From the IMG/VR virus record IMGVR_UViG_3300033463_000049, positions 1 through 64,000 of that record: 64,000 nucleotides of DNA; one strand, given 5' to 3'. The notes beneath the pieces were generated by a model. It was not told where the DNA came from. It searched no databases and was given only the letters and a program-made list of their open reading frames with translations. The position numbers were made by a program, and so were the translations under genes. Source of the stretch: a virus (taxonomy: Duplodnaviria; Caudoviricetes). Below are positions 9,941 through 54,092 of the stretch, in pieces (position 1 is the first letter of the stretch; each line of letters begins with the position of its first letter).

Positions 9941-10075
9941 ACGTTTTTGTTTAGTATTGATTACTATTCCAACACTTAACTCAGTCGGATTTGAGTGATG
10001 CTAATATTAAGGCTCCGAGAATAAATCCGAGTCCAAATGACAGGAGCATCTTTGCTGTGAATAGATCGATGTACA

Positions 10076-10315: not shown

Positions 10316-10344
10316 TTTTCAGATACTTTAGTTTTCATCGATAG

Positions 10345-10692: not shown

Positions 10693-10890
10693 CTTTCAAC
10701 CGGGAAATTTCTCTTTGTTGTAACATTTCCACGGCGACTTGTCTCGCACACATATTGTTGTGCACGAAAGTCGTATCTCACACTTATTTTTGCATCCATG
10801 ATTTGATACGATCTATAAGCCATTGTGTTATTGCTACGACGACAACGAAAGCTATCGCTGCCTCAAAGAGGATTATTGCCAACTGTGCAT

Positions 10891-11232
10891 TCATTTCTTC
10901 AATGCATTTAGTTGTTCTGTGATTTTCGGCAGGTATCGACGATACATTTTACCTGTCTTTTTCGATCGGAGCCAGCAATACGCTTTCCCCTTACTTGAGA
11001 GAAACACAGGGTACTTGAAACCCTGAAGATCTTGATAGTAGAAATTTGTTTTCACACTATCACCAGTTGTAGTTTGTTGGATAAATGTATTACCCTTCAA
11101 AACTACATTTTGTCCTCTCAAGCCATGCGCAATGGCTAAGAATCCAAGGATGAGGACAATGATACCTAGGATTCTCGATGATCGTTTTATCATATGTTTA
11201 AATGGTGAATTCAAACAAAGTTGTGTAAACAT
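10891..11232 (-). CDS. membrane-anchored hypothetical protein
   Basis: TM helix, then YQDLQGFKYPVFLSSKGKAY...SKKTGKMYRRYLP. Confidence 0.75.
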   Translation of the reverse strand: MFTQLCLNSPFKHMIKRSSRILGIIVLILGFLAIAHGLRGQNVVLKGNTFIQQTTTGDSVKTNFYYQDLQGFKYPVFLSSKGKAYCWLRSKKTGKMYRRYLPKITEQLNALKK

Positions 11233-11234
11233 AT

Positions 11235-11271
11235 AAAAAGGGAGCGGACTTATGCCTAAGCAGCCGCTCCC
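11235..11271 (-). terminator. intrinsic terminator
   Basis: GGGAGCGG/CCGCTCCC stem followed by TTTTT on the minus strand. Confidence 0.6.
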
Positions 11272-11280
11272 CTACATGTT

Positions 11281-12093
11281 AACACATCGTTGCGCTTTCT
11301 ATCCTCCCAGTGGGTTGATGTACTCGATGTGGGATTCAGCCAATGCCTTCCATTGACCTCTCCTATAAATCCACACCTAGTAACTTACTAGTTTAGGTTG
11401 GTGTGCCACAATGGTTACGCAACATACTCATTGTAGTATAATTATTCCTTTGATGAAATAACTATAGATTGTAACCTCTAAGGGATTTGCGTGTGAGTCG
11501 AGTAACAGAGACACTCACTCCCCGTTGTATTGATAGGATACAACTGACCGATTCTACCTAGGTAGATTACCACTCGGCTAATGGGTTCAACTATTCCAGT
11601 GGACACATCACTGTTCAAGTCTAGCGTGTGTTTGTCGGGGACACGCATCCTCCCTTAGATAGTAGTCTATCGGCCAGGCAGCAGGCATCAGATAGTACAC
11701 ACAAATGGTCTTGTGTTGACCTGACTATCTTTAGCCTGAACTTCGGGACGTATCCCGAACATCTGCCAATTTGTTTGTAAACTCTTTCCCCTGCAAGCGG
11801 TCAAACCTACAGGGTACTGTTACCATGTAAAATTTGAATTGATTGCGAAATCCCAACTCACTCGAATAATCGATATAGGCGCCAGTTGCCGTGACACGTG
11901 GGATCTACTGGACTTATGAGGAAGTTTACATATTGTGCTCGCTGTCTAATGCCACCTGATATTATCAGGAATGGGAACAACTGCGGTTTAGCACTTACTC
12001 TCTTGCCTCACGGCAGCACGAGCACTTTGATATATGATATTCACGTTGCTCTGCAATATGCAGGTTGTACGTGGAGAGCGCAAATTTTGTGTT
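11281..12093. ncRNA. candidate large (about 810 nt) structured non-coding RNA
   Basis: No credible ORF; end-closing helix 11290-11300/12073-12083; many nested helices. Confidence 0.55.
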
Positions 12094-12203
12094 TATTTTA
12101 ACTTTATACAATAGGCTATATATTAAGAGAAAATAAGCCTATGAATAAGAGAAAATACAACAATTCCGAAAGTGAGGTGGCTCTCCTGCGAGAGCCTGCC
12201 CAC

Positions 12204-12860
12204 TTATAGACCTAAATCGTCAGCGGTTTTTGTGTCCGCTTTCGTTTCGGTCGGTACGTTCAAATCTCCGTCATCAATACGACGCAACAAGTTGTTGCGT
12301 AACATATTTGTCGCGCTTTCAGTATCGGTAAAAACTCCGTAAAAGATTTTACTTTGTTCCGAAATTCGTACAACCGCGCCGTCAGCGTTTTCGTACTCCA
12401 AATACTCTGTACCCTCGTACTTTGTACCCTTCAGGAGTGCGGACACGCTTTCAGTCAAAACGGAAAAAACTGAAGTGTTTCCCAAACCCTCGAAGTACTC
12501 ACGAAGTTTTCCTTCAAGTTTCGTTTGTTGCTCGTCAGTCAGACCGCCTTTGGGAGTCTTGAACGTTTTCCCGTCTCCCAAATCCAAATCCAAATCGTCA
12601 GCCGTAAAAACACCTGAATAACGAATTTGAGTGCGGTTTTTTAGTATCGTCTGTTTCATTTTCTCGCGTACTTTTTCGTCAGTAACACGCGAAAGAATTT
12701 CGTTTTCTTTGTCTGAGAGTGTATCTCCGTCAGAGAACGAAATAACGATACGATAACCCGTTTGGGGTTCGTAGCCCGCGCGTTCCTCACGATTACGCGC
12801 TTTTAGCGTGTCGGGAATTTCGACCAACACGATTTTTGCCAAATCAAATTTTGTCTGCAT
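12204..12860 (-). CDS. acidic hypothetical protein with distinct nucleotide composition
   Basis: 218-aa ORF, CpG-rich, followed by a hairpin at 12171-12204. Confidence 0.85.
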   Translation of the reverse strand: MQTKFDLAKIVLVEIPDTLKARNREERAGYEPQTGYRIVISFSDGDTLSDKENEILSRVTDEKVREKMKQTILKNRTQIRYSGVFTADDLDLDLGDGKTFKTPKGGLTDEQQTKLEGKLREYFEGLGNTSVFSVLTESVSALLKGTKYEGTEYLEYENADGAVVRISEQSKIFYGVFTDTESATNMLRNNLLRRIDDGDLNVPTETKADTKTADDLGL

Positions 12861-13010
12861 GATGTAAAACGTATTAAGTATATGTAATGTATAGGGGGAA
12901 CCTTTCCCCCATACGCATGTACTGGGGTGTGAAGTCTGCTATTTCTCCTTTCCACACTCACACAAAAAAATAAAAAATTTTTAAAAAATTTTCACCGTGT
13001 AGTAGTGTAC

Positions 13011-13046
13011 AAAAAAATCCGAAGAACATCGCTGTTCCCCGGATTC
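13011..13046 (-). terminator. intrinsic terminator ending the 15525-13052 operon
   Basis: AATCCGGGGAACA-GCGA-TGTTCTTCGGATT-TTTTT. Confidence 0.7.
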
Positions 13047-13051
13047 TATGT

Positions 13052-13240
13052 TTAATCTTCTTCCCACCATTGCAGGAATGCACACTTTGCATTAGGATTA
13101 TTCTCTGCTTGTTGGAATTTAACGGACCTAATGTATTTAACTATTCCGTCACTCCACGTGCCAACTTGTATATCACCGTATTTCTTCTGAATGACTTTAA
13201 GTTGTTCTATTATTTCACTTATTTTTAAAGGTTCTTCCAT
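13052..13240 (-). CDS. hypothetical protein
   Basis: 62 aa, LKISEIIEQL..IQKKYGD. Confidence 0.7.
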   Translation of the reverse strand: MEEPLKISEIIEQLKVIQKKYGDIQVGTWSDGIVKYIRSVKFQQAENNPNAKCAFLQWWEED

Positions 13241-13243
13241 GTA

Positions 13244-13462
13244 TTATGCATTATTACTCTCTAGTTCTATTAGCATTTCAAGATAATGTTTGGCCTTTTT
13301 TAGGTCTTCTATACCGTTCTTATCTTTATATCTACATATATACTTTATTATATTACCTACTATAAAGCTTAAGTTATTTTTGTGTATAAATTCCACAGGT
13401 TGGATGGCAAAACCTTTGTAGTGTGAGCCACCCACCTGCTGTTCTAGAGCATTATTCGTCAT
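13244..13462 (-). CDS. DUF3310 (SaV-like) protein
   Basis: QVGGSHYK..IQPVEFI...GNIIKYICRYKDKNGIEDLKKAKHYL. Confidence 0.85.
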   Translation of the reverse strand: MTNNALEQQVGGSHYKGFAIQPVEFIHKNNLSFIVGNIIKYICRYKDKNGIEDLKKAKHYLEMLIELESNNA

Positions 13463-13478
13463 TTTTTACCTCCCATTG

Positions 13479-13694
13479 TCACACTTGCAATAGTTTCATG
13501 TACCTTTCTTTATCCTCTTTCAAAGGATCTAGAATCCAACCCCAATCGTCTACTTTGGTAATATCTCCTCCAGCCCTATTAAATCTCTGTAGAATGTCTT
13601 GTTTAACGTCTTCAGAGTACTTGTCATTGTCAGCGCTTATGAGGCTTACAAAGACTAGATTTCTGAGCATTTTCTTGCTATCCTTATTACTCAT
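13479..13694 (-). CDS. hypothetical protein
   Basis: Probable start MSNKDSKK at 13694, after the extended upstream gene. Confidence 0.6.
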   Translation of the reverse strand: MSNKDSKKMLRNLVFVSLISADNDKYSEDVKQDILQRFNRAGGDITKVDDWGWILDPLKEDKERYMKLLQV

Positions 13695-13716
13695 TTGTGT
13701 TAGGCATTTCTTCAAA

Positions 13717-13980
13717 TTAATTCCACCAATGTTTCTTACGTAGCTATTTTTGTAGATCCTAATACATACATCTCCATTTATCTGCTTCTGCATTGGCTCT
13801 TATATAGTCATCACGTAGAGTTTCAATCTGTTTTTTATACATATTTTCATAAAAACGGTCTTTTTCAATAGTTATACGCCTAATAATGTCTACTTCTTTT
13901 TCTCTAGCTTTTTCGGCTCTCACAATCAGATCTCTATACTCTATAGTGGATATAACCACAATGTTTTCTTTCATTTCCAT
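13717..13980 (-). CDS. coiled-coil hypothetical protein (2 TAG=Gln)
   Basis: Readthrough gives ...WRCMYQDLQKQLRKKHWWN-TAA. Confidence 0.65.
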
Positions 13981-14525
13981 TATACTGCTACTTCTTCAAA
14001 TTCTACGTATTCGTCCATTTCTGTACTCATTCCTTCTCGTTCGACCAGAAGATCACTTTGGGTTGTTGGTACTTCCTCATGTAAGTAGCCGCTCCCCCGT
14101 TCGCTAGCTGTATCATCTCCAAACTCTCCGTTTGTATTACTTTCTGTATCTCCGGGTATGGTTCCTGATACCTCGTCGCTAGTACATTCTTCTGTTGTTC
14201 CGTCATTTTCGTCTTCAAGGTCTTTTTTAAGTTCGTTTATTGCAGTTTCTACTTGCTCAGTTATGTTTCTTTCTTTCTGAGCCGTTTGCATAGCTTCAGC
14301 AAATTCTTTTGGCGTCATTTTAGCGTATTGCCATACATATTTGGTCAAATTACGCATATAAGTGGCGTAAATCTTGGCTTTTTCAGAGTATTCGCCTACT
14401 TCTTCGATCTTTTTTCTATATTCTTCAATCTTTTCCTGGGCTTCTTTTATACTCCATTTGTGGGTATCGTAAATTGCCCGTATAAGAGCTCCGTCAATAT
14501 CGTAAATGTTGCTGTTGTTTTTCAT
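13980..14525 (-). CDS. hypothetical protein with acidic tail
   Basis: 181-aa ORF. Confidence 0.75.
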   Translation of the reverse strand: MKNNSNIYDIDGALIRAIYDTHKWSIKEAQEKIEEYRKKIEEVGEYSEKAKIYATYMRNLTKYVWQYAKMTPKEFAEAMQTAQKERNITEQVETAINELKKDLEDENDGTTEECTSDEVSGTIPGDTESNTNGEFGDDTASERGSGYLHEEVPTTQSDLLVEREGMSTEMDEYVEFEEVAV

Positions 14526-14597
14526 AATTTTAAATTATTACATCCCAATCTAGTGGTTCTATCTCATCATTCAGTTTCCTCGCCATAACAGTGGTTT

Positions 14598-15122
14598 TTA
14601 AGTCTGTAAGTAGTATCTCGAACTATGAGGTCGTAAGCCTCCATCCATACCGGATTGTTCAAACAATCTTTCAGCGTGGTATGCGTACTTTGAACATTCT
14701 GTTTCTATTTCGTCTCCGTCTTCATTGATTGTTATATGGGAATAAGTTTGTGAATTTTTCCAGTTATAGTATGAATTGAGGGCCTGCTTTCGTTCTTTTT
14801 TACTACTGTACTGATGTATACATTTTAGCATACGTTCTGCATCTACGCTTCCACATGCTCGAATCATACAAATATCGTCTACGAAACTCTCAACTCCCTC
14901 CTCTCCAAACTTATTCTTTATCTGCTCATACTCCATTTGAGCTTTTTGGAGGTACGGATTATCTTCATCGTAAACAGGCTCTTCGTTTAGGATATACAGA
15001 CTGTTTATTGGTACTCCGTGAATGAAGAAATATTTACAATTATCTGTTACAGGCTAACTAATAGCTTTCAAACTCAGGAAATCTGCATAATATAGTATGG
15101 CATTGCGTTCTATATCATTCAT
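14598..15122 (-). CDS. hypothetical protein (1 TAG=Gln)
   Basis: ATG 15122 (MNDIERNAILYYADF) is in frame with 14936 through TAG at 15056-15054. Confidence 0.8.
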
Positions 15123-15123
15123 A

Positions 15124-15525
15124 TTATTTCTTTTGGAAAGTTTTATAGATACATTTGGTCACCCAACCAAGTAGGTAACAGAATGGTTCTGAACTACTAT
15201 TGTATACTTGCTGGTCCATATGGCCGTATATGTCAAGTGCTACATGACCGGCCTCGTGAGAAATAGTGTCGATCCAGTGAAATTTATCTATATATTTTGG
15301 TTTGTAGTCGTGCAAACGTACTAACGCCACAGATTTATTGTCAGATTTTCTATAACAAGTAGAGACTGTAGCAAAATCTCCAGGATTATCATCTTCTATC
15401 TCAGCACCATCTGAGTATATGTATAATTTCCTAAGTTCTTCTGTAGTTACATGCTTATTTGCTACTACTAAGTCTACGTTATATATAGCCTCATAAGTAT
15501 CTATTATACTCTTCTTTTTCTTCAT
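15124..15525 (-). CDS. zincin-like (HExxH) protein
   Basis: TISHEAGH followed by SEPFCYLLGW. Confidence 0.75.
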   Translation of the reverse strand: MKKKKSIIDTYEAIYNVDLVVANKHVTTEELRKLYIYSDGAEIEDDNPGDFATVSTCYRKSDNKSVALVRLHDYKPKYIDKFHWIDTISHEAGHVALDIYGHMDQQVYNSSSEPFCYLLGWVTKCIYKTFQKK

Positions 15526-15594
15526 GTTATACTAATTCTTATAGTCTATATAACCCCCTATAGTCCCCCTTATTGAGGGTGGGTTTACGCCGAT

Positions 15595-22280: not shown

Positions 22281-24275
22281 ATGAAAACAATCAAGATAAC
22301 AGAGCAAGGCGCGACGGTTAGTCCGTTGACCGCCTTTGAGAGTGTCAAGAACGTGGCACCCCTGTTGGCATCGTCTCAGGTAGTAGGCCCTTGGATTTAT
22401 AATGGTAATGAGATAAGCCTGCCGTACAGCGTGAACGCAATAGACGGACAGACGAGCAGCTACGCCAAGGGAGAGTGGGAGTTTAATTCTTCTATCACCA
22501 TACACAAGGTACAGCCGACGTATCTGTGGTTCGACCATGCAGACCAAAGTGCTGACATCTACATCAACGATACAAAGGTGACAACCCACTGGGGCGGTTA
22601 CTGTTCATTTTTCGTTGACATCACGAACGCGATACAAGTTGGAACAAACGCGTTGAAGGTTGTGCTGAACAACCAGACGCGCGACGTGTTGGCACCTGAT
22701 AGCGCAGACTTTAATTTCAATGCTACACTGGGTGTAGTTCGTCTCGTGGCAAGTCCTGTACTGCCATCAGTAAATTACGGCTATGATGGATTCCATATCT
22801 CATCTGTTGTGACAGACGAAGAAGCCACGCTGACTATTAAAACCAACATTCCAACTTATGCAGATGTAGTGCTGCGAGTGCAGGATGAAGATTTTAGCTA
22901 TACTGAGCGCAAGTTTGGTAAGGGTGAGATATAGTTTGTGGTGACGATTGATAATCCGCACTTGTGGAACGGCAAATTGGACCCGCATCTGTATGACATA
23001 TCGTTAGACCTTTACTATAATGGAGAACAGTGTCATCACCTGACGAGAGCCTACGGATTGCGCTACTATACCGTAGATAATACGGGTTTCACGCTTAACG
23101 GTCAGTCGTATTTGCTGCGTGGTGTGTGTATGCACGAGGACATTGTAGGTAAGGCCAACGCTCTGACGTCAGAAGATATTGACCAGGAGTTTGGAATTAT
23201 TGAAGACCTTGGCTGTAATTTTATCCGTACTGCTCACTATCCACATCCGCGTCAGTTCTATGACTACTGCGACCGCCTCGGCATTATTGTACAGACGGAG
23301 ATACCCTGGGTAAATAAATGTTGGACGAGTCAGCCGCAGGACTATTGGACTCACCTTGCCACTCAGACGGAAGAAATGGTGAAGCAGCACATGAATCATC
23401 CGAGCATTGTGTTCTGGGGTCTCGGTAATGAGGTATCTAACAAAGGGACGTTTAATGGAACACTTGCGGGACAGCAGTTGACCATTTTGCGTGACGTAGT
23501 TCTCTCGATAGATACATCGCGTCCGATTGGCTTTGTTTGCTCGGATGGTGTATCAAACCCGTTAACCAACTACCACATAAATACTGTAGATTGGGCAGGT
23601 GTGAACTGTTACGTAGGTTGGTATCACGACAAAACCAGCAATGACCCGACAAGTCTGTTGGAGGACAGATAGTCAAAGATGGACACCAAGGCGCTTGCCC
23701 TCAGCGAATATGGATGTGGCGGTACACAAGATTGTCACTCTGAAAATCCAAGTTCGACTACTAACAAGGGTGCTGGTGGTGCAAGGCATGATATTGAGTA
23801 CATGATGTGGATTCACGAGGGTTATCTGGCGGCTATCCGTCAGATGCCGGAGCTTGTATTTACCTCCGTTTGGGTGTTGTTTGACTTTGCTATGGAAGGT
23901 CGTAATGAAGGTTATAAGCTTTGCCTTGATGGTACTACAACTACGACCGATAACAGCCTGCGTCGGCTGAATGACAAAGGTCTTGTTATGCGAGACCACG
24001 TTACTAAGAAGGACGTATTCTATCTTTATAAAGCAGAATGGTCGTCTGAAAAGTTTGTACACATTTGTCAGAAGTCGTATACGAAGAAGGCCGATAGAGT
24101 GATTAAGTGTTACTCAAACGATGGAACTTCATTTACATTGAAGGTTAATGGTACGACTGTAGAAACTGTAACAGCATCTGACAATATTGTTTTGTTTACA
24201 GCATACACTTTCCAAAGTGGGGATGAGATTACTGTAGAAGGTGCAACAACAAGCGATACATATACAATCGCATAA
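22281..24275 (+). CDS. glycoside hydrolase family 2 (beta-galactosidase/glucuronidase-like), 664 aa, 2 TAG=Gln
   Basis: NFIRTAHYP, HMNHPSIVFWGLGNE (acid/base), SEYG (nucleophile), W..FDF, NDKGLV. Confidence 0.9.
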
Positions 24276-36055: not shown

Positions 36056-37564
36056 ATGAATAATACTTTGCTTAATAATCTCCAGCTGTATCGTGGACGT
36101 CGTTTCTCGGACCTGGTAGATGAGAACATGATTTCTAACGCCCTGCTGACCAAGCCCCATGAGGTATCTGGTCTGCTTTCACTGGTTTTCGGTACTAAGG
36201 ACGACGGTGTTTCTACCGCTATTGATATGATTACCGGTGGTCTGGGTAAAACAATGATTATCGAGAACCGTGAGTTCGAGTGGTCCGTAATGGTTGATGC
36301 TGATCACGCTATCAACATTCGTTGGGCCAAGGCTGACGGCAGCGAGATTACTACTTCAAATTACAGCACTGTTACTCCTGGTGCCAACGGTCAGCCTATT
36401 TATCTGGCTCTCGAAGAGCGCTGGTTCGGTCCCGGTGCAATCCTGAGCTTCGATGACTACAAGTTCCAGGTTCGCGTTAGCGGTACTCCGTATCAGGACG
36501 GTAGCGCTTGGGTTTATGAGTGCTACGTTGTTGACAGCAGCAACGCTGCCTACATTCCTGGTGAGTTCCTGCTTCCCGGTCGTCAGGTAAGCCGCATGGG
36601 TTCTGCCTATGAGGAGTACAGTGACGAGGCTGATATCCTGAACTATCAGACTCCGTTTAAGATGCGTAACCAGTTGCAGACTCTCCGTCTGTCTTGGGAC
36701 ATCACCGGCGATGCTTACAGCACTGTTTTGGCTATCGCTCTGAAGGATCCCGAGACTGGTAAGACATCTTATCTCTGGTCTGATTATCAGTACTGGCTCG
36801 GTCTCCGTGAGTGGAAGAAGCGTGAGGAGAAGGAAATGCTGTTCGGTAAGTCAAATCGTCAGGCTGACGGTACTTACAACCTGAAGGGTACTAACGGTCG
36901 TCCCGTTGCCAAGATGTCTGGTCTGTTCGAGCAGATTTCTCCGGCTAACGTTCGTTACTACACCACTCTGACTGCAGAGTTGCTCGAGGACTATCTGTTC
37001 GATCTGTGCTACAATATTCTGGGTACAAACGAGCGCAAGTTCATGGCTCTGACTGGTGAGATGGGTATTCGCGAGTTCGATCGCATCCTGAAGGAGAAGG
37101 TTGCTGGTTTCAACCTCATCGACACCGTATTTATTACTGGTAGTGGTCAGAACCTGACTCTCGGTGGTCAGTTCACTACTTATAAGATGACTAACGGCAT
37201 TGAGCTCACTCTGAAGCGTTGTCCTCTGTTCGACAACATGGAGTTGTTCCGTCAGCTTCATCCGCTGACTGGTAAACCACTGATGTCTTACACCTTCCTG
37301 TTCGTTGATATTGCTTCACGTGACGGTCAGGCTAACATCGTTAAGGTTTGCCGCAAGGGTCGCGAGTTCGTTCAGTGGTGCACTGGTGGTTCTGTAATCC
37401 CCACGGGTTATGGTAACAGCATCAGCACGCTGCGTTCTAACAGCCGTGATGGTTATCAGGTTCACTTCCTCGGTGAAGTTGGTATCATGCTGCGCAATCC
37501 GCTGTCTTGCGGTATTCTGTACTGTGATGCCGAAGATACAGAAATCGTTAATGAAGGTATCTGA
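36056..37564 (+). CDS. major capsid protein
   Basis: 502 aa, strong codon bias, no TAG, portal-scaffold-MCP synteny. Confidence 0.9.
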   Translation: MNNTLLNNLQLYRGRRFSDLVDENMISNALLTKPHEVSGLLSLVFGTKDDGVSTAIDMITGGLGKTMIIENREFEWSVMVDADHAINIRWAKADGSEITTSNYSTVTPGANGQPIYLALEERWFGPGAILSFDDYKFQVRVSGTPYQDGSAWVYECYVVDSSNAAYIPGEFLLPGRQVSRMGSAYEEYSDEADILNYQTPFKMRNQLQTLRLSWDITGDAYSTVLAIALKDPETGKTSYLWSDYQYWLGLREWKKREEKEMLFGKSNRQADGTYNLKGTNGRPVAKMSGLFEQISPANVRYYTTLTAELLEDYLFDLCYNILGTNERKFMALTGEMGIREFDRILKEKVAGFNLIDTVFITGSGQNLTLGGQFTTYKMTNGIELTLKRCPLFDNMELFRQLHPLTGKPLMSYTFLFVDIASRDGQANIVKVCRKGREFVQWCTGGSVIPTGYGNSISTLRSNSRDGYQVHFLGEVGIMLRNPLSCGILYCDAEDTEIVNEGI

Positions 37565-37643: not shown

Positions 37644-38396
37644 ATGGTAGTTGAATTAAAAATTAAGAAGAAGAATCCCTGGATTGGTTTGGTTAAATAT
37701 AAGGCATGTTTTGACTATATTGCTCCGTATTTCACTAGGTCCGGGTCGATTTACACGGGACTTACTCCCGAGGACGAAAGATATTACGAAAAGGCTTTAG
37801 GTTACGAAGAAGGTCATCTTGCAAAGACTAGTGACTTCTGGACTACATTCTGTGTTAAGGTTGGATCAAGAGGTTTGATTCTCGACGATTCAGTTCCCCG
37901 TCAGGAGATGATAATCAAGTTCCTGAGTGGACACAAGCGTGTAGCTACGTCATTAGATAAGCTCACTGCAGGTAAGGACTATTTGCTGATTAATCGTGAG
38001 GCAGAAGCTGTTGAAGCAAACAAGATCAATAAGCTTCGTCGCGAGGCTCTTAAGGAATTCGATAAGCTCAGTCTCGAGCAGATGCGTAAGTGTTTGCGTT
38101 TGTTTGGTGTTAAGGCAGATAAGCTGTCAAACGAGCTTGTAGAATCAACATTGTTCAATTTGGTTGACAAACAGCCGAAGCGATTCTTTGAAAAGTGGGT
38201 TGACAACAATACTAAGGAAACTGAGTTTATTCTCGAAGAGGCTATTGCTAAGGGTGTAATTCGTAAGGATAAGACGCACTACTTCTATGGCTCAGACATG
38301 TTCGCAGATTCACTTGAGGATGCAATTGCTTATTTGGATAGTAAGAAGAATCAGGATCTAAAGCTTTCGATTATTAACGAAACACAAAATAAATAA
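37644..38396 (+). CDS. crAss-like structural protein following the MCP
   Basis: 250 aa, no TAG; synteny. Confidence 0.75.
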   Translation: MVVELKIKKKNPWIGLVKYKACFDYIAPYFTRSGSIYTGLTPEDERYYEKALGYEEGHLAKTSDFWTTFCVKVGSRGLILDDSVPRQEMIIKFLSGHKRVATSLDKLTAGKDYLLINREAEAVEANKINKLRREALKEFDKLSLEQMRKCLRLFGVKADKLSNELVESTLFNLVDKQPKRFFEKWVDNNTKETEFILEEAIAKGVIRKDKTHYFYGSDMFADSLEDAIAYLDSKKNQDLKLSIINETQNK

Positions 38397-38413
38397 TCTA
38401 AATCAATCTGCAT

Positions 38414-41400
38414 ATGACGCACAGAGACATATACATAAAATTTATGATCGGTTACGATAAAGCAAACGTTACTTCATCGTATCCTTCCTTGACGGAGTAT
38501 GAAATAGCTACGTTCTTGGATAAAGCATATCTTGCGCTCATTGCTCAAAAAGTGACCGGTAATAATTCGCGTCATATAGGGTTTGAACAAGACTTAAAAC
38601 TAACCGAAGATTTAGGTCCACTTGTTACTACAAAAAGAATAAACACCGATATAAACACCAGTCCGATACCATATGTAAGCAACGCACTGTCTTGTGGCAA
38701 ACCAAACGACTGGTTGTATTTTGTGTCCGGTGAAATGAAAAGAGGTTTGGGAGATTATGAAAAGACTTGGGACATGCAACTCATAACACACGATGTTGCA
38801 TCCAAGTTCCAAACCACAGCATATAACATTCCCTGGATTAAACATCCGGTGTGTTATGAAGAAGGAAATCGCATCTATGTATTGTATGACAGTATACTAC
38901 AATCTGCTAATGCCGGTAGTAATCCGTCGCTGTCTTTGACATACATAAAGAAGCCGAAGAAGTTTATGGTCAACGACGAACCTGAGATTGTTATTCCAGG
39001 CGCACCTACCGTCACTTCTGATTATGAAGACGGACAAAACGTTACGTTACACATAGGAGATACTTTTTAGATTGAGTATACAAACGGAAGTTATGGTTCA
39101 GTAATGGTGTTTCCTCCTAGAATAATCAATACTGTGACTTCTGAAACATCGACTGGCGGAACCATTAATTGTACTGCTCAATATGTTGGAGAAGGTACTC
39201 TAACTCTTAAAAGTACGGCGCACCCTACGTGGCAATACTCAGTAAACTTTACTGTAGTGCCGAACGAAGGGGTTACTGAAGAGTGGACAAAAAGTATAAC
39301 TGGTCCGGATACAATATAGGGCAGTGGTAGTGTTACAGCACGTTATTACGCCAATATGATTAGTAATTTGTACGGTTTCTACAATTGCGAATGGACGATT
39401 ACTCCGATGAGCGGTCTAGGTGGACATTAGTTGAGTGATTATATATAGTATGGATCTGATGGAAATTAGTTGACAATAGACAGGTTGAGAAACTATACGT
39501 ACGATATAACTGTGTTTATCAAAGCAGAACCTGTTGGAATTAGTGATCCTAGTAGAAAGCAGGCTGCTACTGTATCTAAGTACGTTAGAATAATTAACGA
39601 GGCGTATCAACCAGAATAGGAACAGTGGTATATAAGTTTTAATCCGGATACGTATAATATTTCTCAAGATAATACTATACCACTAGAAGCACACATGGAC
39701 AGTTCACTAGGCAATGAGGATGTTCCTGTGTTTAGTATTACAAGCGGTAATTAGTATGCTCGTATTACAAATCAACATGCCGGTACATATCAGCAGGAGG
39801 CTACGTTGGAAATATTACCAGCGGCAGAGGGCGATGATTTCCCAATTACTATTACGGTGAGGGGAACTAATCATAGTGAGATTTCTGAAAATTATTATGT
39901 ATACGTACAATATACAAACAACGAAACCCCCAATCCACCGACGCCCACTATTTGGCACTTTGGAGATTTACTTCCTGCAGGATTATATGGGTCTGGTAGT
40001 GAACCACAACCTAGTCAGTCTGCCACATTAACAACTGCTCCTACTGCAAAATCTTTAACATACAATGGTTCAGCACAATAGTTGGTAAATCCCGGTGTTG
40101 CATCTGGTGGTACGTTGATGTATCGAAGAGTATATCTCGGATCTTCAACAGCATGGAGTTCTGAAATTCCAACGTATACTAATGCGAACGTTCAATCTTA
40201 GATATATTACATGATAGTGGGAGACTCTAGTCATTCTGACGTAACCTTCCCAAATCCAATCAATGTTGAAATATCTCAAAAACAGCTTGGTGTAACGTGG
40301 AGCAATACGTCATTTACATATGATGGCAACACGCACGTTCCAACTGCTACTCCGACCGGAGTTGTGGGTTCGGATTCAATATCGTTTGTAGTAAGCGGCG
40401 GAGCATCTTCTGCGGGTACGTATACTGCAACAATTGCTTATATGGAAGGTACTGGATATACCAATTATCTGCTTCCACAAAACAATACTTGCCAATTTAC
40501 TATATCTAATTCAGGATCAAGTTCTGAAGCGAGTGTGACAACTGCCCCGACCGCCAAATCACTTACTTATAACGGACAACCCCAAGACTTGTTGAATGCA
40601 GGAACAGCCTCTGGCGGAACACTGTATTATAGTTTAAACGGAACTGACACAACTCCAACTTGGTCTGCATCTATTCCGCAATAGACGAACGCTGGTACTT
40701 ATAACGTATGGCACAAGGTGGTTGGTGATTCTTCACACACAGATAGTCCTGTATATGGACCAATGTAGGTAACTATCGGAAAGAAAGAAGTTACGTTGAC
40801 GTGGAGCAATACTACTTTCTCATATGACGGAAGCTCACACGTACCGTCTGTATCGGTGAGCGGTGTAATAACAGGAGATTCTGTAAGTGTATCGGTAAGC
40901 GGCGATCAAACTAATGCTGGTACATATACAGCAACTGCTAGTATGACATCGCAGAATTATAAATTGCCTTCAAATTACACATGTCAGTTTACTATAACCG
41001 CACCTCAATTACAACTTAGCGAGTTCAATAGTCAGTCTCCTACTGGATATTATGTGATGAAATTCGACGCTTATGAAGTTCGCACCGATAATGGGCTTGG
41101 TATAAATATAGGGGCACAGTATACTTATGTAAATATAATAGTTTATATTGATAGAGAAAACGGCGTTGTAAAATGTCCTTCTAATCATTACACCGGAAGT
41201 TGGAAATTACTTTCGCTTAATGAAACAACGCAGTCGATAGGATCTACTATCAACTCTACTCCAAGTGGTGGAAGTGGAGACGAGTATTGTACAGAAATGT
41301 GCGACATTGCGCGTATTGTAATGTAGGATAAATACGGAATCAATCTAACGTACGATTCTAATTCTTTGGACAATAATGTAATTGTTTTCAACGATAGTGA

Positions 41401-41887
41401 TCCACAAATCACACTTTCCGGATACATCGATAGAACTAGACAAATATCATTATCGTCGTTATCGGAATTTAACAACTCTTCTCCGTCCGGTTATTATATA
41501 TTAAGAGGAGACGTTTAGGATATGGAGTATAGATCTGAAGGTTCTTACAATTCTTCCGAAACGGAATATCTAAACAATTGTTAGAACTGCGTAGTATATA
41601 TAGATCGTGCAAATAGTTTAATAAAAACAGTTGCTGACAGAGACGTTTCTTACGGATACAACTATGCTTGTGACGAATCTACAAATATTGTCGATAGTAC
41701 GTGTTATTTTGGACTAAGCGATTGGGGTAAAGGTAAATTATATTATATTGCAAGCGCTGCTTCCGAAGGATTATTGCGCAATTATAACTTGGATTATTAG
41801 TGGAGTACGCAAAATAGAAATGCGTATATTGACGTGAAAGGTGCCGCTCCTGTTATTTCTGGATACATTCGCGGAGTTCAATCTTAA
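38414..41887 (+). CDS. tail ring/adaptor N-domain fused to Ig-like and repeated beta domains (1157 aa with TAG=Gln)
   Basis: N-terminus paralogous to 42055; two TTAPTAKSLTYNG...W..T.F.YDG repeats and two LSEFN..SP.GYY...VYIDR repeats; no TAA or TGA in frame until 41885. Confidence 0.85.
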
Positions 41888-41900
41888 AATATAATAGACT

Positions 41901-42047
41901 ATGAAAATTGATTTTACAGATACAACACAATTTGAGTTGTCTGATTCTATGGCAGAGGAACTTGTGGATCTTGCAATATTGATGGCGTTGGAGAACGTAG
42001 AGTCTTAGAGAGTTAAAACTAAACAATCAACCTTAACATTAGCATAA
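41901..42047 (+). CDS. detached C-terminal segment of the ring protein (48 aa, 1 TAG)
   Basis: FELSDSMAEELVDLAILMALENVES matches FECNDSMAEELISLAITYALENVES of the 42055 paralog. Confidence 0.8.
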
Positions 42048-42054
42048 TAACGTT

Positions 42055-42972
42055 ATGATGTCACATAAAGATATATATACAAAGTTTATGATTGAATACG
42101 ACAAGGCTAATGTTTTGTCATCATATCCATCGTTGACTGAATATGAAGTGGCTACGTTTTTAGATAAGGCATATAGCGCATTAATTGCGCAAAAGGTTAC
42201 TGGTAACAATCCCCGTTTAATGGGCTTAGAAACGGATGTAAAGGTCATAGAAGACCTTTCTCCGTTGATTGTTACGGTAGAACTTCCGCTTTATCACAAC
42301 CAACAAGCTGACGATAGTTCAGTAAACCTGTACTCTAAGAATATAATGTACGTAGATCTTCCAAAAGACGACACCGATGTAAATGCGTATGTGTCTACTG
42401 AATGGAATTTTGGCGATACATTGCCTTCAAGATTAGGATCTGGTGGTGCAAGCTAGACGTATGCTGTTTCGCAATATGCAGAATATCTGTACTTTATATC
42501 GGCGGCTTTGAAAAGAACAATGGATCAGACCCCAATGGATGGTCATTTAGAAAGGGCTTTGCCAATAAAGCTGGTGTCGCATCAAATGGCTAAGAGTTTT
42601 TTAAATAAAGCTTATAACATGCCGTGGATAAAACAGCCGGTTGGATATATAGAATAGAACAAGTTGTATATTATATACGACCCTTCAGATAATTAGTTTA
42701 ATAATTTAAGTTGGGTAAACGATACACTTTCTATAACCTATATAAAGAAGCCGAATCCTTTTGCAAAAGATCTGAGCAATACTTCAAAGTTTCCATCTAA
42801 TGTCGGATATTATACGTTGTTTGATGCTACTACACCAAATGAATATTATATATTCGAATGTAATGATTCTATGGCGGAAGAATTAATATCGCTGGCCATT
42901 ACATACGCACTTGAAAACGTAGAATCCAATAGACTATCAACAAAACTTAACATGAGAGGATTAGAATCATGA
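42055..42972 (+). CDS. tail ring/adaptor protein
   Basis: FMIEYDK...YPSLTEYEVATFLDKAY...TYIKKP...EELISLA. Confidence 0.8.
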
Positions 42973-43880
42973 ACATAAACGAAACGAGACAATTAGGTAT
43001 TGAGTTTGAAAGACGAGTTCAAACTATGATTCCTGATAGAGAATACATTGACAAACTTGATACTGATACTATTTATTCTTTTTTAAACTAGTATCAAGAT
43101 AAGTATGTTCATGAAATCTACAGGAATCTCGATAAGGTTGAATCCGGGTCAACGTTGTCTGCGCACATAGAATCTGTTCTACAGTCATTGTAGCGTAGCG
43201 TTACAATCTCAACAGATCAGACCGATATAAATGCAGATCAGTCGAAATGTATTGGCAACTATACTGGCAATTTTGACATATCTGACTCTAATTATATTGT
43301 AATAGATACAGCAAGATCAGTTGTATTTAGACTGCCAAACGACTTCTATATGTATATCAGAAGTGTTTCTAACGTGAGTTCTACTTACGGATTTAGATCT
43401 AATACAACCAATGGACAGAGCAGCAATGACCCTCTTCAGAAACTTCCTATAAGGATTATTCCGAATGAGTTGGTATCTCAATCGGACGTGTGGAGACTGT
43501 TAGAAACTCCTCATAATAGTTTGAGGATTCTGAGGTATCCTGCTGCTGTATTGAGTGCTCCCGATAGTACCGGGACTACCAGCTATCCAACACTGACCTG
43601 TATATACGACCAGTATACTACAGTCGAGGGCATTAAAGTTTTATATTACAAACAGCCCAGACATTTTAGTATATTGACTAGCACTCCGTGCGAACTTCCA
43701 TCAGACGCTTTTGATGATTTAGTAACCGGTGCGGTTGATTTGTATATTCAATATGTGTCTAACAACAGACCTACTGATAGAAGCAGACAGCCGATCATTC
43801 CCGCTTCTGAAACATCTAAAGCTAAAGAAGAGGCACAGAGACAGCAAAGAAATCGTAGGAAACAACAAGATGAAGACTGA
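42969..43880 (+). CDS. tail ring/adaptor protein paralog
   Basis: EFERRVQ...TDTIYSFLN...YYKQP...CELP. Confidence 0.75.
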
Positions 43881-43882
43881 TT

Positions 43883-44578
43883 ATGAGATGCATTGACCTT
43901 ATCGCAGCATTTGAGCTTGAGATAAATAAGCTTGACGATGCTCTACAAAAGCCGGTCACTGATGATTCTATATATTGGTTAAATCAAGCTATGATGAAGC
44001 TTGTGAAAGAAAGGTTTAACGGCAATTTGCCACACCGGACATCATACGAACAAAATGAAAAACGCACTAGAGATTTAGTCAATCTGCTACGTGAAGAGAT
44101 ACATGATTTCGCGGTGGACTACGAACCGGTACAACACAAGTCATATGATGAATACGAATACAATTATCCATCAGACATGATGTTTGTACTAAATGAAGAT
44201 GTTGTAATATCAGATACTCAAGGTGGTCACGAGATGGACACTTGTGTATTTGAATGCACAGCAGACAACTTCATGTATAGAATAAATAATAGTCTTACTG
44301 ATTTCCATTATAGGTATCATCGTGCAAGACCTCTGAGAGTTAGGACACAGACTGGTTTCAGACTCCTAACTGATACGAAATATAGAATTAAACAATATAC
44401 TTTGGGCTACCTTAAATTGCCCGAAGAAATAACCAATGAAAATCCTTTTAAAGAATATCAGGATTTTCCAGATTACATTTGGATGGAGATAATCAAGATT
44501 GCAGCTTAGATGTATGTAGAAAATCAGGCTGATCCTAGATATCGCACCATTACAAATGAAGTAAATACACAAGAGTAA
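43883..44578 (+). CDS. tail ring/adaptor protein paralog
   Basis: YWLNQA...YEQNEKRTRDL...YLKLP...EIIKIAA. Confidence 0.75.
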
Positions 44579-47699: not shown

Positions 47700-48419
47700 A
47701 TGGCGAAGATTTCATTAAAGACAATAACCGATGATATTCTTCTCCTTGTAAGAAATAACTACATTAGTGAAAGTGAAGACCTCTCTAGAGCTTAGATTCA
47801 CGCGTGGGTAAAGGCGTACAGACACAAGTTGTGGAAAGACGAAAAAGATCGCAGAAAGCAATTAGCTCTGATGAATAAGCTCGACTTTGATGAATTCATA
47901 GACAACGAGTATTTTCGTAAAGTTGAGACAGGTCCGATGGAACTTGAACCAGTAGAATCTGGTGACGAAGATGGTTAGACTTTCACAAAGCGTACAATAG
48001 ACACGCTCGAAGATGTATTTAACAACGACGACAATAGTATTCTTGCCATTCACGATGAAAATGGTGAGAATATTTAGTATATGAATCATGTGCGTCGCCA
48101 TTACAACTATTGGAGAAGATATACGTTTGGAGAGATGACCGGATATTATAAAGATGACGGTCACGTCTATGTCCAAGGACTTGTTGACGAAGGTCAGCTT
48201 AAGTATATATACGTACTGTGGATTAAGGAAATTGAAGATGACGATGAGGATGAAGATGATGAGGATGATGTACTGATTCCTGCATGGATGGTCCCAACTA
48301 TCAAAGAACTCATAATGAAGAATGAGCTTGCGTTTATGCTCAATAGACCTAGCGACGATAGCAACAACGCTACGTTGGCAAGCGTAAAGCCACACGGTCC
48401 ACAAGACGATGAAGAATAA
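47700..48419 (+). CDS. structural protein (tail hub or ring-like)
   Basis: MAKISLKTITDDILLLVRN..., in frame with 48081-48419. Confidence 0.7.
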
Positions 48420-48852
48420 AAAATCTTATACATTCAGAGATATGTACCGTACAATGCCCATAGAGGTACCGTACAGCCGTTATAAGCGCATTTTAGACGA
48501 GATGTGTAAAGTTATTCTGGAACACATGTTAGAGCGCTCAGAAGGCTTTAAAATGCCTTACGGACTCGGCTTAATACAAATTGGAAAGTACAAACCAAAG
48601 TCTTATACACAAGACTCTCTGTCTGTAGACTATAAGTCTAGCAAAACTTACGGGAAGAGGATATACCACTTGAACGAACATTCAGATGGATATAAATTTA
48701 GGTTATACTGGTCTAAAATACCAAGGACGTTTCCGAATAGATACAAATATCAATTAAGCTTAGTAAGACAAAACAAGCGTAAGTTAGCTCAACTAATATT
48801 TAACAAACACGATTATATAGATATAGATGATATACAATTATACAAGGTGTGA
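48409..48852 (+). CDS. IHF/HU-like protein
   Basis: FKMPYGLGLIQI...YHLNEHSDGY; typical position in the crAss-like tail module. Confidence 0.7.
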   Translation: MKNKKSYTFRDMYRTMPIEVPYSRYKRILDEMCKVILEHMLERSEGFKMPYGLGLIQIGKYKPKSYTQDSLSVDYKSSKTYGKRIYHLNEHSDGYKFRLYWSKIPRTFPNRYKYQLSLVRQNKRKLAQLIFNKHDYIDIDDIQLYKV

Positions 48853-49693
48853 ATCAGTCATCGCTAAAATCATGGCTGATTTAGATTCCACAGAAGTAAG
48901 ATAGAGAACTTCTGATATAAAAGAATGGATTTTTGAGGCCGTGGAAAAGATTGGTGCTCCTATGCAGTATATCAGAAAAGAGTCTGGGACAGAGGACTGC
49001 CCGTTGTTGAAGATAGAAGACAACTAGGTTCCACTGCCTTCAGATTTAACTGTATTAGACGGTGCGGCTTACTCGGAATCACCAAAAGGCCCTTGGGTGC
49101 CAATGAAGACGACTACAAGCTTATTTAGAGAGCCGTCTAGGCCACAAAAACCCAGCGGTGGACATGAGCCAATGAGACATAAAATGTTCACTACACAAGG
49201 CCAGTTTTACACAGTCAACCTTATGAAATATGCTGAGAAGCATCTAAAAACTGACGATCAACCTCAGTATTTCATTAAACCAGGTTGGTTGGTTACTAAT
49301 AAACGAAAAGGATTTGTAAAACTGGCTTATAAAGCAATACCAGTAGACGAAAGAGGTTATCCACTTATTCCAGACCTCCCGTCCTACCAAGAAGCAATCT
49401 ATTGGTACGTTGCAATGAAGTTATCCTTCCCTAAGTGGATAAACGGTTCACTCGGAGGTAATTCTAAATACGCACAGAAGTATGCCGCAAACACCTACAG
49501 CTATATGTAGAACCAGTGGAACTTCTATCGTAATCAAGCTTATGCTGAAGCAATGATGCCAACTGCAGACGATATGGAAAATATAAAGAACGATTGGAAT
49601 AAGTTAGTTCCAGATTGGGATGCTAGGGATACGTTCTTTAAAGATATAGGTACAGAACAAGATATTTATACTGATTACTATTATGGATATTAA
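48827..49693 (+). CDS. tail tubular protein (P22 gp4-like)
   Basis: EWIFEAVEKIG...AIPVDERGYPLIPD.PSYQEAIYWY. Confidence 0.8.
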
Positions 49694-52600
49694 TTCACAA
49701 CAATAGATAAATACATTTGTTGGCGGCATGAATACCGATACCTCCGATTCGTTACTGGAGAGTAATCAGTACAGATATGCCGAAAATCTAAGAGTTGTTA
49801 CTAACACCGACAGCAATAGTGGAGAGTTGCGAATGATTGAAGGTACGAAAGTATTCATACCTCAAGGTGACTGGAATGAGATCATTAAGATCGATAAAGT
49901 TCGAGACATTGTAGTATTTATTACTAGGAGTAGTAGTACTTGGTCTATATGGAAATTTAAAGACGGTGGAACAGCCTCTCCTACCAGAATATTTGGTCCG
50001 TGCAGTACGAAGATATGGAAAACTGGATGTTATCCAAATCTCAGTACGGTACTTAATTACGAATCTGAAAGTAATATCAAGTACTATATTGCAGATGGAA
50101 TACATCAAATAATGGTACTTAATGTGGCAGATACTCCGTCTTACATTCCGACAGATATAAAACATCTTTCCGGATATACGGAAATCATGTTGCCAGACTT
50201 AAGTGTGCAAATATCAGACCGATCCGGACAATTAAAGTCTGCTAAAGTATAGTATGCGTATAGATTGTACAAATAGGGTGGATCTGCAACGAAACTCTCT
50301 CCTTTAAGTAGAGTATTATCTCTGTACAAAGATTCTAAATCTGGATACGCTAGTACTTTTAGATCTGGTAGATCTGTTAGAATTTTACAACCTTCTGCAG
50401 AATTTTATACACAGTCTACATAGCCATCTGGATACTTTGTAAATCCAAGAATATATATTTCTACAGACACTGTTGTAGATAATCAAGGATTGCGCGGCAC
50501 ACCGACTGTTCCGTAGATACATATAAACGATATATCGTTCTCAAAATATTCGAATAACGGAAATTAGCAAATCGGAGAATCTATTCACGATTGTTATTAT
50601 ATAGAAGACACATTGTGTACAAGAAATTTGGACACAGATCCGTTGTCTCCGTCTGAAGTTTTGTATTCCTACAATCACAATACTGCCGTGCGCGGATTAG
50701 ATTCAACTCATTACTTTGAAAATTCTGGAGACGACGACTCTACGTGGATACAAGAAAATTCAAGACTGATTGTTGTGCAAATCGGAAGTACTATGGACGA
50801 CAATGAATACGAATGTTCTAATGTTATAGAGTTTACATATGACGATCTGTACCAACTCACACTGAGTTCCGGATGTATTGTAGACTCTGTGTGGCAAGCC
50901 GGCCAAAGAATTCAAGTAGATAGTATTCAGCGTACACATCCGTTAGGAAATACATCGCAACAGCAAGAAAACCTTTCTGTATCTGAAGTATTGGATAGAA
51001 TACAGATTTTCAGAATCAATTATGTAGTAAACGGACAATCACCAGAAGTAAACGTAATATATGATGGCACATATGTTGCCGGAGGTTAGATTATAGACTC
51101 GGGGCAAGATGATTTACGCTCAGTTGCAGTTTCTGAATTATTGTCATACGTTGATTTTGGAGTTACTCCAAAAGTACTGGAGGTGAAAAATAATTATTTA
51201 TTTGCTGCCAACATAAATTATTCTCAGTAGAAGACCGACGATCTGTTTAAGAACCTAGATCTGAGTTCATGCTTTACTATAGAATAGTGCACTGGACCAG
51301 AATACACAATAAGTGAAACTAGTTAGGATTTAAATTATCAATCTCAACACGCAGCATTTAGGCCCGGTGAAACCTATCGATTTGGAGTAATATTCTACGA
51401 TAATGAAGGAAATCGTTCTAGCGTATTTCCGCTAGGAAATGACGTTACTATGGACGATTATTCATCTTTCAATTGGTTGACTATAAACCAAGGTACTCCT
51501 ACAGACACTGTATATAGCCCTACGTTTACAATAAAACCACCGACAGTAAAGATAAAACAAAGAAGTTATATACCAAACTGTTCTAGATACGAGATTGTAA
51601 GATGCATAAGAACGTTGTCAGATAAACGCACCCTTACACAAGGATTGATAGCAAAACCCGCAGAATGTTGGGATGCAAATCCATTAGAAGGAAGCAGCCA
51701 TCGGATGCGTATAATAGGACCGAGAACTTTATTTTCTCTTGGAGAAATTGATTCGTATCACGGGGCGAATTTTAATGATGAAACTAGGTATGTTACAACT
51801 TCCGATTCAAACATCCTTTGTTTTGCATCTCCGGAATATGTTTATCAGCAAGACGATGTAAAAGATATGTTGAACTAGTATCAAGGTGCGCTGTCGGTAA
51901 AACGTGTTGCGAATTATATTCCGTACATCAAAGTTGATCAGAGTAATTCATATAAATATGCTCCAACAAACGGTACTTTTAATTATCCGACAGTTATTGG
52001 GTATACTAATAACATTACTATAACTCACTAGTTTAGTAGTATTATTAATTCACAAACACTTTCGCTGCCGTTTACAAAAAACAATAAAACTGGATATATA
52101 AAGTTTAATCACATTACTCCGCATACAATATAGTATTATACTACATTTGTAGCAAACGGGCCGGCAAATATTACAGATCTAGCATATCCGAATGTACCAG
52201 CATATAATGCTTTTGCAAACGGAGAAGATTTGCGATTTAAAGACGATATAACGACCATAGGAGACTATTCTTATCTCGGATGGTCTGCGTTAGCTTATAA
52301 TGTTAGTAATACAGGAAGCGGTAGTGAATTGTATAATACGTTTAAAAATGGTAACGGAGAAACATATCCAATTGGAACAACTGGGGCATGTGTTTTAATG
52401 AAGGTTGATAATATAAATACATTTACTCCAAACACGGTGGTTGAAACCAACGGTCCGTTTTTGATAACTGTAGCAGATATATACAAATCTGCAAATCCTT
52501 ACGGAGGAGATACTTCGGACGCAAAAAGGAATAGTACATATTGCTCATTTGGAGATGTATTTGAAAATCAAGTTGCAGATCATGTGCTGAACAGCGGTGA

Positions 52601-54092
52601 CTGTTATATTAGAATGTTCTAGTATAACGCACTACACAACTGGTATGATGCAACATTTCCGGCTGTAACTAAATGTGGAACTGTATATAGCGTTCCAATG
52701 TTTATGGACATTGACTTACACGGACAGTACGGAACTACGTATACAAAGAACATAGCAAAAGGATATTATATACAAGATAAAGCGGCTCAATTTGATTCAT
52801 ACATACAAGAGACAGATGCTTATTTGTATAATACTGCTTACAATCAACATCCGGATATAATAAAATACTCTACGAACGATAATCGTGAGTATATCTCACA
52901 GCAATACGATACCAGAGTTCATTATTCTGAATAGAAAACTAATAATGAAGATATAGATAGTTGGACACAGTTCAGAGCAATGAACTTCTCAGATGTAGAT
53001 TCCAGATTTGGTGAGATAACGGGTCTTAAGTTGTTTAAAGACAAACTTGTATTCTGGCAAGAAAATGCAACTGGAGTTTTGGCTGTCAACGAACGCGTGA
53101 TACTTCAAGATGCAAACGATACACAAGTTACGCTCGGTACTGGTCAAGTGTTGGATAGATATGATTACATAAGTACTGTATACGGTATGAAGAAAGACCA
53201 GAGTACGGCTTGTATTTCTAACGACGCACTATATTGGTGGGATGGTAACAACAGAGAGTTGTTACAATATGCTGAAAAGTATTCTGTAGTACCTTTGTCG
53301 CAGGTTAAAAATATACGCAACTATATAAACAACAGTGCTGAAAATGACCATCCTCATGTATACTATAATAATAAGTATAAAGAGGTTGTATTCCAGTGTG
53401 TAAACAACGAAGCTGTGGCATACAGCGAGTTATTGTAGAGATTTACTTCAGTCTATACGGCTATTGAGAACAACCAAAAAGGATTTATTCCCACATACTC
53501 AGCTTGTGTGAACGATACTATATATATTACGGATGGAAAAACTATTGAGACAGACAATACAGTTTCACAAAGCGGATCTAAGTTGTTTGGATATAGCGCA
53601 TATCCTTATATAAAGTATATAGTAAATTCTAACAATACGCTAACAAAAACTTTCGATACTCAAATAATAGGCGGAGAGTTGTACGGAGGAAGTACTCGAC
53701 ACGAATTAGTGGAAGGCAGTAGTTATGGAACCCACAAAGCCAACGGAAAGGATGTAAATTCTGAAATGCTATTCCAAAATCAACCAAAATTGATAGACGA
53801 CACTCATAATTCTCTAACACAAGCTAAGCATATTTTGCATGACGATGGCGTGTTAAAAGACTTGGAAATGCGTTACAACACTCCGTTAAAACAAACAGCT
53901 CATACTACTGGTACATCTTTGAGTAATAGAGAATACGATTATAGACTTAACATTCCGAGAGAGACTGGTAATGAAGTTTACGGCGGAAGGTTAAAGGGAA
54001 AAACGATGCAATGTGAATTATGGTCTACTAATAACTCCATTGACTTCTCATTGCAATACATAATAACTAAATATAGAATGTCATGGAGTTAA
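49683..54092 (+). CDS. tail stabilization/muzzle protein (P22 gp10-like), about 1469 aa
   Basis: NTFVGGMNTD...QYRYAEN; GETYRFGVIFYD; DVDSRFGEIT; RLKGK; all sub-ORFs share one frame. Confidence 0.85.

Follow-up and report, generated by a model that had tools for sequence, protein, structure and literature searches.

Introduction

The tail barrel of crassviruses is formed by ring proteins, which consist of three conserved helices and a beta-sandwich and are stacked as dodecamers (PMC10172136). In ΦcrAss001, the rings R3 and R4/R5 (gp35 and gp34; 7QOJ; PF25710) are single polypeptides of ~225-240 amino acids (aa) without appendages, and the fibres dock via separate tail-hub proteins. Here we describe a locus in a 64,000-nucleotide (nt) stretch of phage DNA, hereafter the window (positions 1 to 64,000 of IMG/VR record IMGVR_UViG_3300033463_000049, a 102-kb virus contig), in which a long gene (38414-41887) and the small open reading frame (ORF) behind it (41901-42047) would together encode one tail-barrel ring subunit in two pieces, with helix 3 completed in trans. 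The locus shares with ΦcrAss001 the fold, the gene neighbourhood and the paralogous multi-ring barrel; unlike in ΦcrAss001, its ring domain bears a covalent arm of 970 aa, and the third helix appears to be a separate gene product.

A member of the same ring family occupies the same genome position in cr273_1 (gp21, YP_010113570.1, 790 aa; Suoliviridae, Buhlduvirus; 'hypothetical protein' in RefSeq), where an insert of ~540 aa lies in another loop of the beta-sandwich and the helix closes a single, unsplit chain. Podovirus head-to-tail adaptors also dock tail fibres, as T7 gp11 does with gp17, the fibres binding non-covalently to an intact adaptor. By analogy, these adaptors may be compared with the window ring as a helical bundle with an outward beta domain that holds the fibres, and Foldseek also lists adaptor chains, with weak scores, for the model of the unsplit paralog presented below; unlike in the adaptors, the binder would here be part of the ring polypeptide. 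A precedent for the split itself is provided by phage Aeh1, in which nrdA is divided into two genes by a homing-endonuclease gene and the pieces reassemble into an active enzyme (PMC3045599). As with Aeh1 NrdA, two ORFs correspond here to one single-ORF homologue, foreign coding DNA lies between them and non-covalent assembly is proposed. In Aeh1, however, the gene between the pieces encodes a selfish endonuclease and the split product is an enzyme, whereas the intervening DNA of the window is variable and fused in frame to the first piece as an apparently useful adhesin arm, and the second piece is one helix. The ring family and the multi-ring barrel are already known. No split form and no counterpart of the window arm was found in the described phage records searched, appendage-bearing or split ring proteins go unmentioned in PMC10172136, and a full-text literature search returned no description of them.

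Results

Two ORFs cover a single-ORF ring homologue

The elements of the locus are as follows.

38414-41887, + strand: long gene, one open frame of 1157 aa, TAA stop at 41885-41887
38414..38968, + strand: ring N-domain, residues 1-185, by homology to the plain paralog
38969..41887, + strand: adhesin-like arm of ~970 aa, in frame with the N-domain, by translation and repeats
40028-40507 and 40535-40999, + strand: MBG-like units, by internal repeats
~41015-41443 and ~41459-41884, + strand: duplicated C-terminal beta domain, by internal repeats
41901-42047, + strand: small ORF of 48 aa, ATG 13 nt past the TAA of the long gene, +1 frame, TAA at 42045-42047
42055..42972, + strand: plain unsplit paralog of 305 aa with three TAG codons and its C-terminal helix in cis

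The long frame contains 15 internal stops, every one of them TAG, and is open only if TAG is read as sense. Across the genome, the number of residues in frames of at least 200 codons almost doubles, from 8195 to 15532, once TAG is treated as sense; judged from this sequence measure, the late genes of the phage read TAG as sense. The residue was taken as Gln from an alignment and from knowledge of crAss-like phages: within the small ORF's conserved motif, locus L011 has a TAG at the position of a genuine Gln codon in locus L010. An amber-suppressor tRNA was not found in the 64,000-nt window by ARAGORN, which returned six tRNAs there.

The N-domain comprises helices 1 and 2 and the beta-sandwich of a crassvirus tail-barrel ring protein of the R3/4/5 type, and its third helix is missing. 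Residues 1-77 of the long protein are 72% identical to the plain paralog and residues 96-185 are 42% identical, after which the match stops at LSLTYIKKPKKF, around nt 38965 (motif LTYIKKP..F). The helix is found again in the small ORF, which has a single TAG, at codon 36, and whose product is 65% identical to residues 266-299 of the plain paralog, its C-terminal helix (E 1.6e-7 when the phage's own genome was searched). As paralog residues 2-237 align with the N-domain and residues 266-299 with the small ORF, the two ORFs cover the single-ORF homologue in the same order. The initial annotation, made from the sequence alone, had placed the end of the paralog match at about 38965, Ig-like and duplicated beta domains from there to the TAA at 41887, and the missing helix in its own 48-aa ORF with an ATG 13 nt later; the identities given above and the internal repeats of the arm (50% and 37%, see below) bear it out, and the coordinates hold. 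A fusion of the long gene and the small ORF by frameshift or readthrough is ruled out by a TAA at 41892, which closes the frame of the small ORF upstream of its ATG at 41901.

A search limited to long proteins retrieved 37 database proteins of 636-1740 aa that share the N-domain; 8 of them end with the helix (unsplit, with internal inserts) and 29 lack it. Among 28 split-type proteins, the N-domain has 40 invariant columns, and the residues invariant in the family are kept.

The small ORF is conserved in layout and sequence

Twelve places were examined, namely the window (W), loci L007-L014, L016 and L017, and one listed without DNA, so that 11 were read as DNA. The ring N-domain gene is followed by the small ORF in all twelve. 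On the contigs of eight helix-less proteins, an ORF of 47-50 aa with the motif FELSD.MAEEL..LA lies downstream in every case, and three further places, reached via homologues of the peptide, repeat the layout. The gap from the stop to the small ORF is usually 1-21 nt, with 123 nt in one locus. Two loci, L017 (5176-7150) and L010 (3001-7144), have a three-piece variant in which the gene for the ring N-domain is separated from the helix ORF by a fibre-like gene of 379-401 aa (401 aa in L010) with conserved N- and C-terminal motifs. The N-domain gene of L017 encodes only 226 aa and has a short acidic tail; in the place listed without DNA, an N-domain gene of 289 aa and a separate gene of ~378 aa precede the helix ORF. 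The separate gene in these two places indicates that the site admits entire genes in addition to fused arms.

A search with the 48-mer returned 35 clusters of stand-alone homologues, 34 of which are 46-50 aa long; the thirty-fifth is a 35-aa call, under translation table 11, of the window's own ORF, and a weaker match of 67 aa is also listed. An alignment of 25 stand-alone homologues has 22 invariant columns. The ratio of nonsynonymous to synonymous substitution rates (dN/dS) of the small ORF is 0.07-0.12 among four close loci, and in distant pairs the peptide is still conserved with synonymous sites near saturation. Its in-frame TAGs lie at different codons in different loci. Both pieces of the split pair are thus conserved and under selection, and these comparisons argue strongly that the small ORF is a real gene under strong purifying selection and no relic. 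Standard gene calling loses this 48-aa microprotein family in TAG-recoded phages: table 11 reports the small ORF of the window as a 35-aa fragment (41901-42008, database protein P0049), and the homologue in L011 was missed altogether.

The split pair in place of a plain ring gene

In the described genomes cr130_1 and cr272_1, a plain ring gene (234-294 aa) follows the 250-aa gene that stands after the capsid gene, and is itself followed by genes resembling those at 42969 and 43883 of the window. In L010-L014, L016 and L017, the split pair fills the slot of the plain gene, the next gene is of the 42969 type, and no plain copy is adjacent. That the pair is the only copy rests on the flanks seen; the full block from capsid to muzzle is covered in L016, where every called gene from the major capsid protein to the muzzle is visible and none is a plain copy. 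Since this position is occupied by the split pair alone in at least seven loci, the pair appears to be needed. The window clade (W, L007-L009), for its part, keeps the plain paralog directly downstream of the split pair. In a FastTree phylogeny of the N-domain, split forms are scattered among plain forms, and the well-supported branches alone demand at least seven changes of state; the tree has many unsupported forks, from which a number of split origins is not readable. This scattering of N-domain sequences fits repeated origin or recombination.

Fold and family of the ring proteins

Two further ring-type genes follow the plain paralog.

42969..43880, + strand: remote ring-like paralog of 303 aa, hhalign to the ring profile with a probability of 80%, E 1.5e-5, no Pfam match
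43883..44578, + strand: R3/4-family ring protein of 231 aa, PF25710 at 39 bits, above the cut-off, hhalign with a probability of 91.5%

The AlphaFold2 model of the plain paralog has a mean predicted local distance difference test score (pLDDT) of 82.4, with helices at residues 4-17 and 29-49, a beta-sandwich and a C-terminal helix at 271-304; the paralog carries its own insert of ~60 aa in a loop of the beta-sandwich. The best Foldseek matches of this model are chains D/E/F of the ΦcrAss001 barrel 7qoj (E 2e-10 to 4e-10; template modelling score normalised by target 0.70-0.73), and the plain paralog has the 7QOJ-like ring fold of three helices and a beta-sandwich. Against PF25710, it scores 21.4 bits and the long protein 17.6 bits, both below the gathering score of 27 bits. 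PHROGs gave no match for the three proteins, and a PDB sequence search with the plain paralog returned a chance match to a Fab only. As to position, the locus lies in a structural block of capsid genes, ring paralogs, R2, R1 and muzzle. The name 'tail ring protein' that the initial annotation had given to the long gene is therefore supported by fold, synteny and family. The alignment of the gene at 42969-43880 to the ring profile includes the C-terminal helix, and its family directly follows the small ORF in loci without a plain paralog; by profile similarity, it is probably a further, unrecognised ring paralog, which would make six ring-type genes in this phage.

Co-folding of the N-domain with the 48-mer

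The initial annotation had proposed co-folding of the N-domain with the 48-mer as a check. Residues 1-200 of the long protein, with an alignment of split-type proteins, were folded together with the 48-mer, with the alignment of 25 homologues, alongside three controls. The pair passed, with an interaction prediction score from aligned errors (ipSAE) of 0.66 against 0.00 for the best of the three controls. The ipSAE mark is reached by 58 of 80 solved complexes and by 2 of 110 mismatched pairs, counts that are rough, custom alignments having been used. At least 95% of contacts recur between runs, and the partner reaches a pLDDT of 74 or more. In the models, the two chains are predicted to form a helical bundle in which residues 1-33 of the 48-mer contact helix 1, helix 2, residues 65-70 and residues 181-187, the interface on the N-domain being formed by residues 1-42, 65-70 and 181-187. 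The co-folded 48-mer takes the site of the cis helix in the model of the plain paralog. The pLDDT of the N-domain falls from 78-79 with the true partner to 56 in the controls, a difference that is a hint only.

The arm behaves as an exchangeable cassette

An Ig-like region, a pair of 160-aa MBG-like units and a C-terminal beta domain in two copies make up the arm. Within the long protein, residues 539-698 match residues 708-862 at 50% identity (E 1e-42) and residues 868-920 match residues 1016-1071 at 37% identity (E 6e-9); Pfam gives weak CopC and MBG_3 matches. The arm had no match in described phages, where tblastn of the long protein matched the N-domain only, and an IMG/VR scan with patterns from the long protein yielded no confirmed relative. 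Between the window and L007, the flanks share 91-97% DNA identity and the arm 83%, and a block of 755 nt is present in the window only. Against L008 and L009, DNA similarity is lost near 38900 and returns at 41880-41901, at the start of the small ORF; the arms of these two loci are unrelated in sequence to that of the window, though the loci are close relatives. This break of similarity at the arm edges indicates that the arm is an exchanged cassette. Arm domains in other members include Big_2, BspA-type LRR and InlB B-repeat. In one bovine-gut sequencing run (X3), a contig skips 507 nt (169 codons) in frame, from 40105 to 40613, joining equivalent points of the two MBG-like units, which corresponds to one repeat unit; this is in-frame copy-number variation of the arm. 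Unsplit members of the family have inserts in three loops, and those at the split loop measure at most 303 aa, against ~430-1560 aa for split arms. The arm may act as an adhesin.

The phage and its gene neighbourhood

Bovine-gut sequencing runs carry DNA nearly identical to the window, and goat-gut runs contain smaller shares of its sampled words. Among described genomes, cr272_1 and cr130_1 of the Suoliviridae come closest, with ~75-78% DNA identity in the capsid gene only. On these comparisons, the window derives from a crAss-like, Suoliviridae-like phage of the bovine gut, whose structural block is placed by Pfam matches. Besides the ring genes listed above, this block contains the following genes.

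36056-37564: major capsid protein, PF23898, E 6e-210
47700-48419, + strand: ring 2, tail-barrel block
between ring 2 and ring 1, + strand: gene of 147 aa, tail-barrel block
48827-49693, + strand: ring 1
49620-54092, + strand: muzzle protein

Ring 2, ring 1 and the muzzle protein are assigned jointly by PF25702, PF24228 and PF25731 (E 5e-51 to 8e-144). A scan for promoters and terminators between genes gave nothing beyond chance.

The capsid gene of the window is intact and contains no TAG. In several close relatives, an HNH/NUMOD4 endonuclease gene breaks up the major capsid gene and is flanked on either side by called Crass_capsid fragments, at these positions.

L007:1-2150, L008:1-2150, L012:1-1564 and L013:1-2122: capsid-gene interruption in relatives

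This insert probably represents either an intron or a homing endonuclease of the free-standing kind. The RefSeq records of cr272_1 and cr130_1 give the name 'RecA protein' to the conserved 250-aa gene that follows the capsid gene (37644-38396). In the window this gene matches no Pfam family and lies among capsid genes, so the name is likely to be an annotation error. Upstream of the packaging genes, the late region also contains a complete GH2 glycosidase gene with two TAG codons (22281-24275; Pfam E 7e-30).

Discussion

We propose that 38414-41887 and 41901-42047 encode one tail-barrel ring subunit in two pieces, a reading to which we assign a probability of about 0.72 and which rests on the layout in twelve places, the purifying selection, the at least seven loci in which the pair fills the slot of a plain gene, the co-fold and the break of similarity at the arm edges. 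The first piece would provide helices 1 and 2 and the beta-sandwich and continue as the arm of ~970 aa from the loop that leads into helix 3. The second piece, a 48-aa peptide, would be translated separately from its own ATG and give helix 3, which would pack in trans against helices 1 and 2 and thereby finish the three-helix bundle used to build the dodecameric ring. Once incorporated, such subunits could display up to 12 covalent arms outside the tail barrel, where they may serve as binders of the host surface or of glycans. As the arm would have a free C-terminus, any module of any length could fit there; the N-domain and the helix ORF would be the fixed flanks, and the arm between them would be exchanged by recombination. 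The initial annotation had described a naturally split structural protein with a swappable C-terminal extension, and the evidence on which our reading rests supports this, with assembly in trans proposed from it.

Several points weigh against this reading. The production of the 48-mer and its binding are predictions from sequence and modelling, and the co-fold score, which expresses the confidence of a model, may reflect similarity to the ΦcrAss001 rings of known structure, as the halves of a fold tend to pass. The word-based search for small ORFs favours conserved sequences and so inflates their apparent invariance. By sequence, the long protein and the plain paralog (P0001 and P0002) fall short of the PF25710 cut-off for membership. 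The plain paralog at 42055 is also present in the window, so the split copy could be an accessory and not the full ring; in addition, twelve arms of 970 aa on one ring are sterically demanding, and occupancy may be partial.

The presence of this paralog leads to a different explanation, in which the plain protein builds the ring and the long protein with its 48-mer is an anchored fibre that docks via a ring-like domain or replaces a few plain subunits, no separate 12-mer ring of arms being formed. It would account for the plain paralog kept directly downstream throughout the window clade (W, L007-L009), for the tail of the clade's peptides, which has diverged to RVKTKQ.TLTLA against RL.TKLN.RGLE in plain and other split forms and suggests a different contact, and for the separate fibre-like gene between the pieces in L017 and L010, from which it follows that non-covalent fibres use the site too. 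We nevertheless consider it unlikely, as the split pair is the only gene at the position in at least seven loci, the N-domain retains the family-invariant residues, and split N-domains are scattered among plain forms in the tree, with no separate fibre lineage.

The layout also resembles a tandem duplicate with an insertion, from which it could be surmised that the small ORF is an untranslated 3' remnant of a duplicated ring gene split by the insertion of an adhesin gene, and that the long protein works without a third helix. This is very improbable: the length of the small ORF (46-50 aa), its start codon and its frame are kept in the twelve places and the 35 clusters, it persists where no plain copy is adjacent, and its dN/dS is low while synonymous sites approach saturation in distant pairs; the drop in N-domain pLDDT without the true partner points the same way as a hint. 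Untranslated decay of the small ORF, which the initial annotation had named as fatal to its reading, is contradicted by these comparative data (conservation, dN/dS 0.07-0.12). The same annotation had offered, as an alternative, that removal of the 2.9-kb insert at the RNA or DNA level restores a plain subunit, whether through splicing of the RNA, trans-splicing of the protein, excision of the DNA or recoding. Interruptions by introns or inteins are frequent in phage genes, and in relatives the HNH gene sits within the capsid gene; the search of the locus itself, however, found no intron, no intein and no insert-less DNA form. The region 38000-42500 has no match to an Rfam family at E up to 1, Pfam detects no intein or Hint domain, and the ~10 residues ahead of the helix in the 48-mer are too few for a C-intein. 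The insert is in-frame coding sequence that has adhesin-type repeats and is adapted to the TAG code, the two pieces do not share a frame, the TAA at 41892 blocking a simple +1 shift, and unsplit relatives keep large inserts within one polypeptide. In four bovine-gut DNA runs, no contig joins across the insert, an observation by which contigs cannot prove absence. Removal of the insert is accordingly hardly to be expected.

Returning to the split ring subunit, it can be hypothesised, with somewhat better than even confidence, that a microprotein family of ~48 aa completes the crassvirus ring bundle in trans, that the ring gene is a nested cassette site accepting modules either fused or as whole genes, and that this natural split-protein display system is a main route of host-range change in the crassviruses of the ruminant gut. 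Crassviruses are among the most abundant gut phages, yet few of their receptor-binding proteins and host ranges are known. The ring gene that follows the capsid genes would be a hypervariable display site, with three insertion loops in addition to the split form and arms of up to ~1560 aa, and annotators seeking crassvirus receptor binders may be directed to it. The 48-mers also make up a conserved microprotein family, one that gene callers overlook or cut short. A virion structural protein held split by selection would be a rare case, and the principle of a scaffold to which a short helix is added in trans could be adopted in phage display or in the engineering of host range in laboratory phage-bacterium systems.

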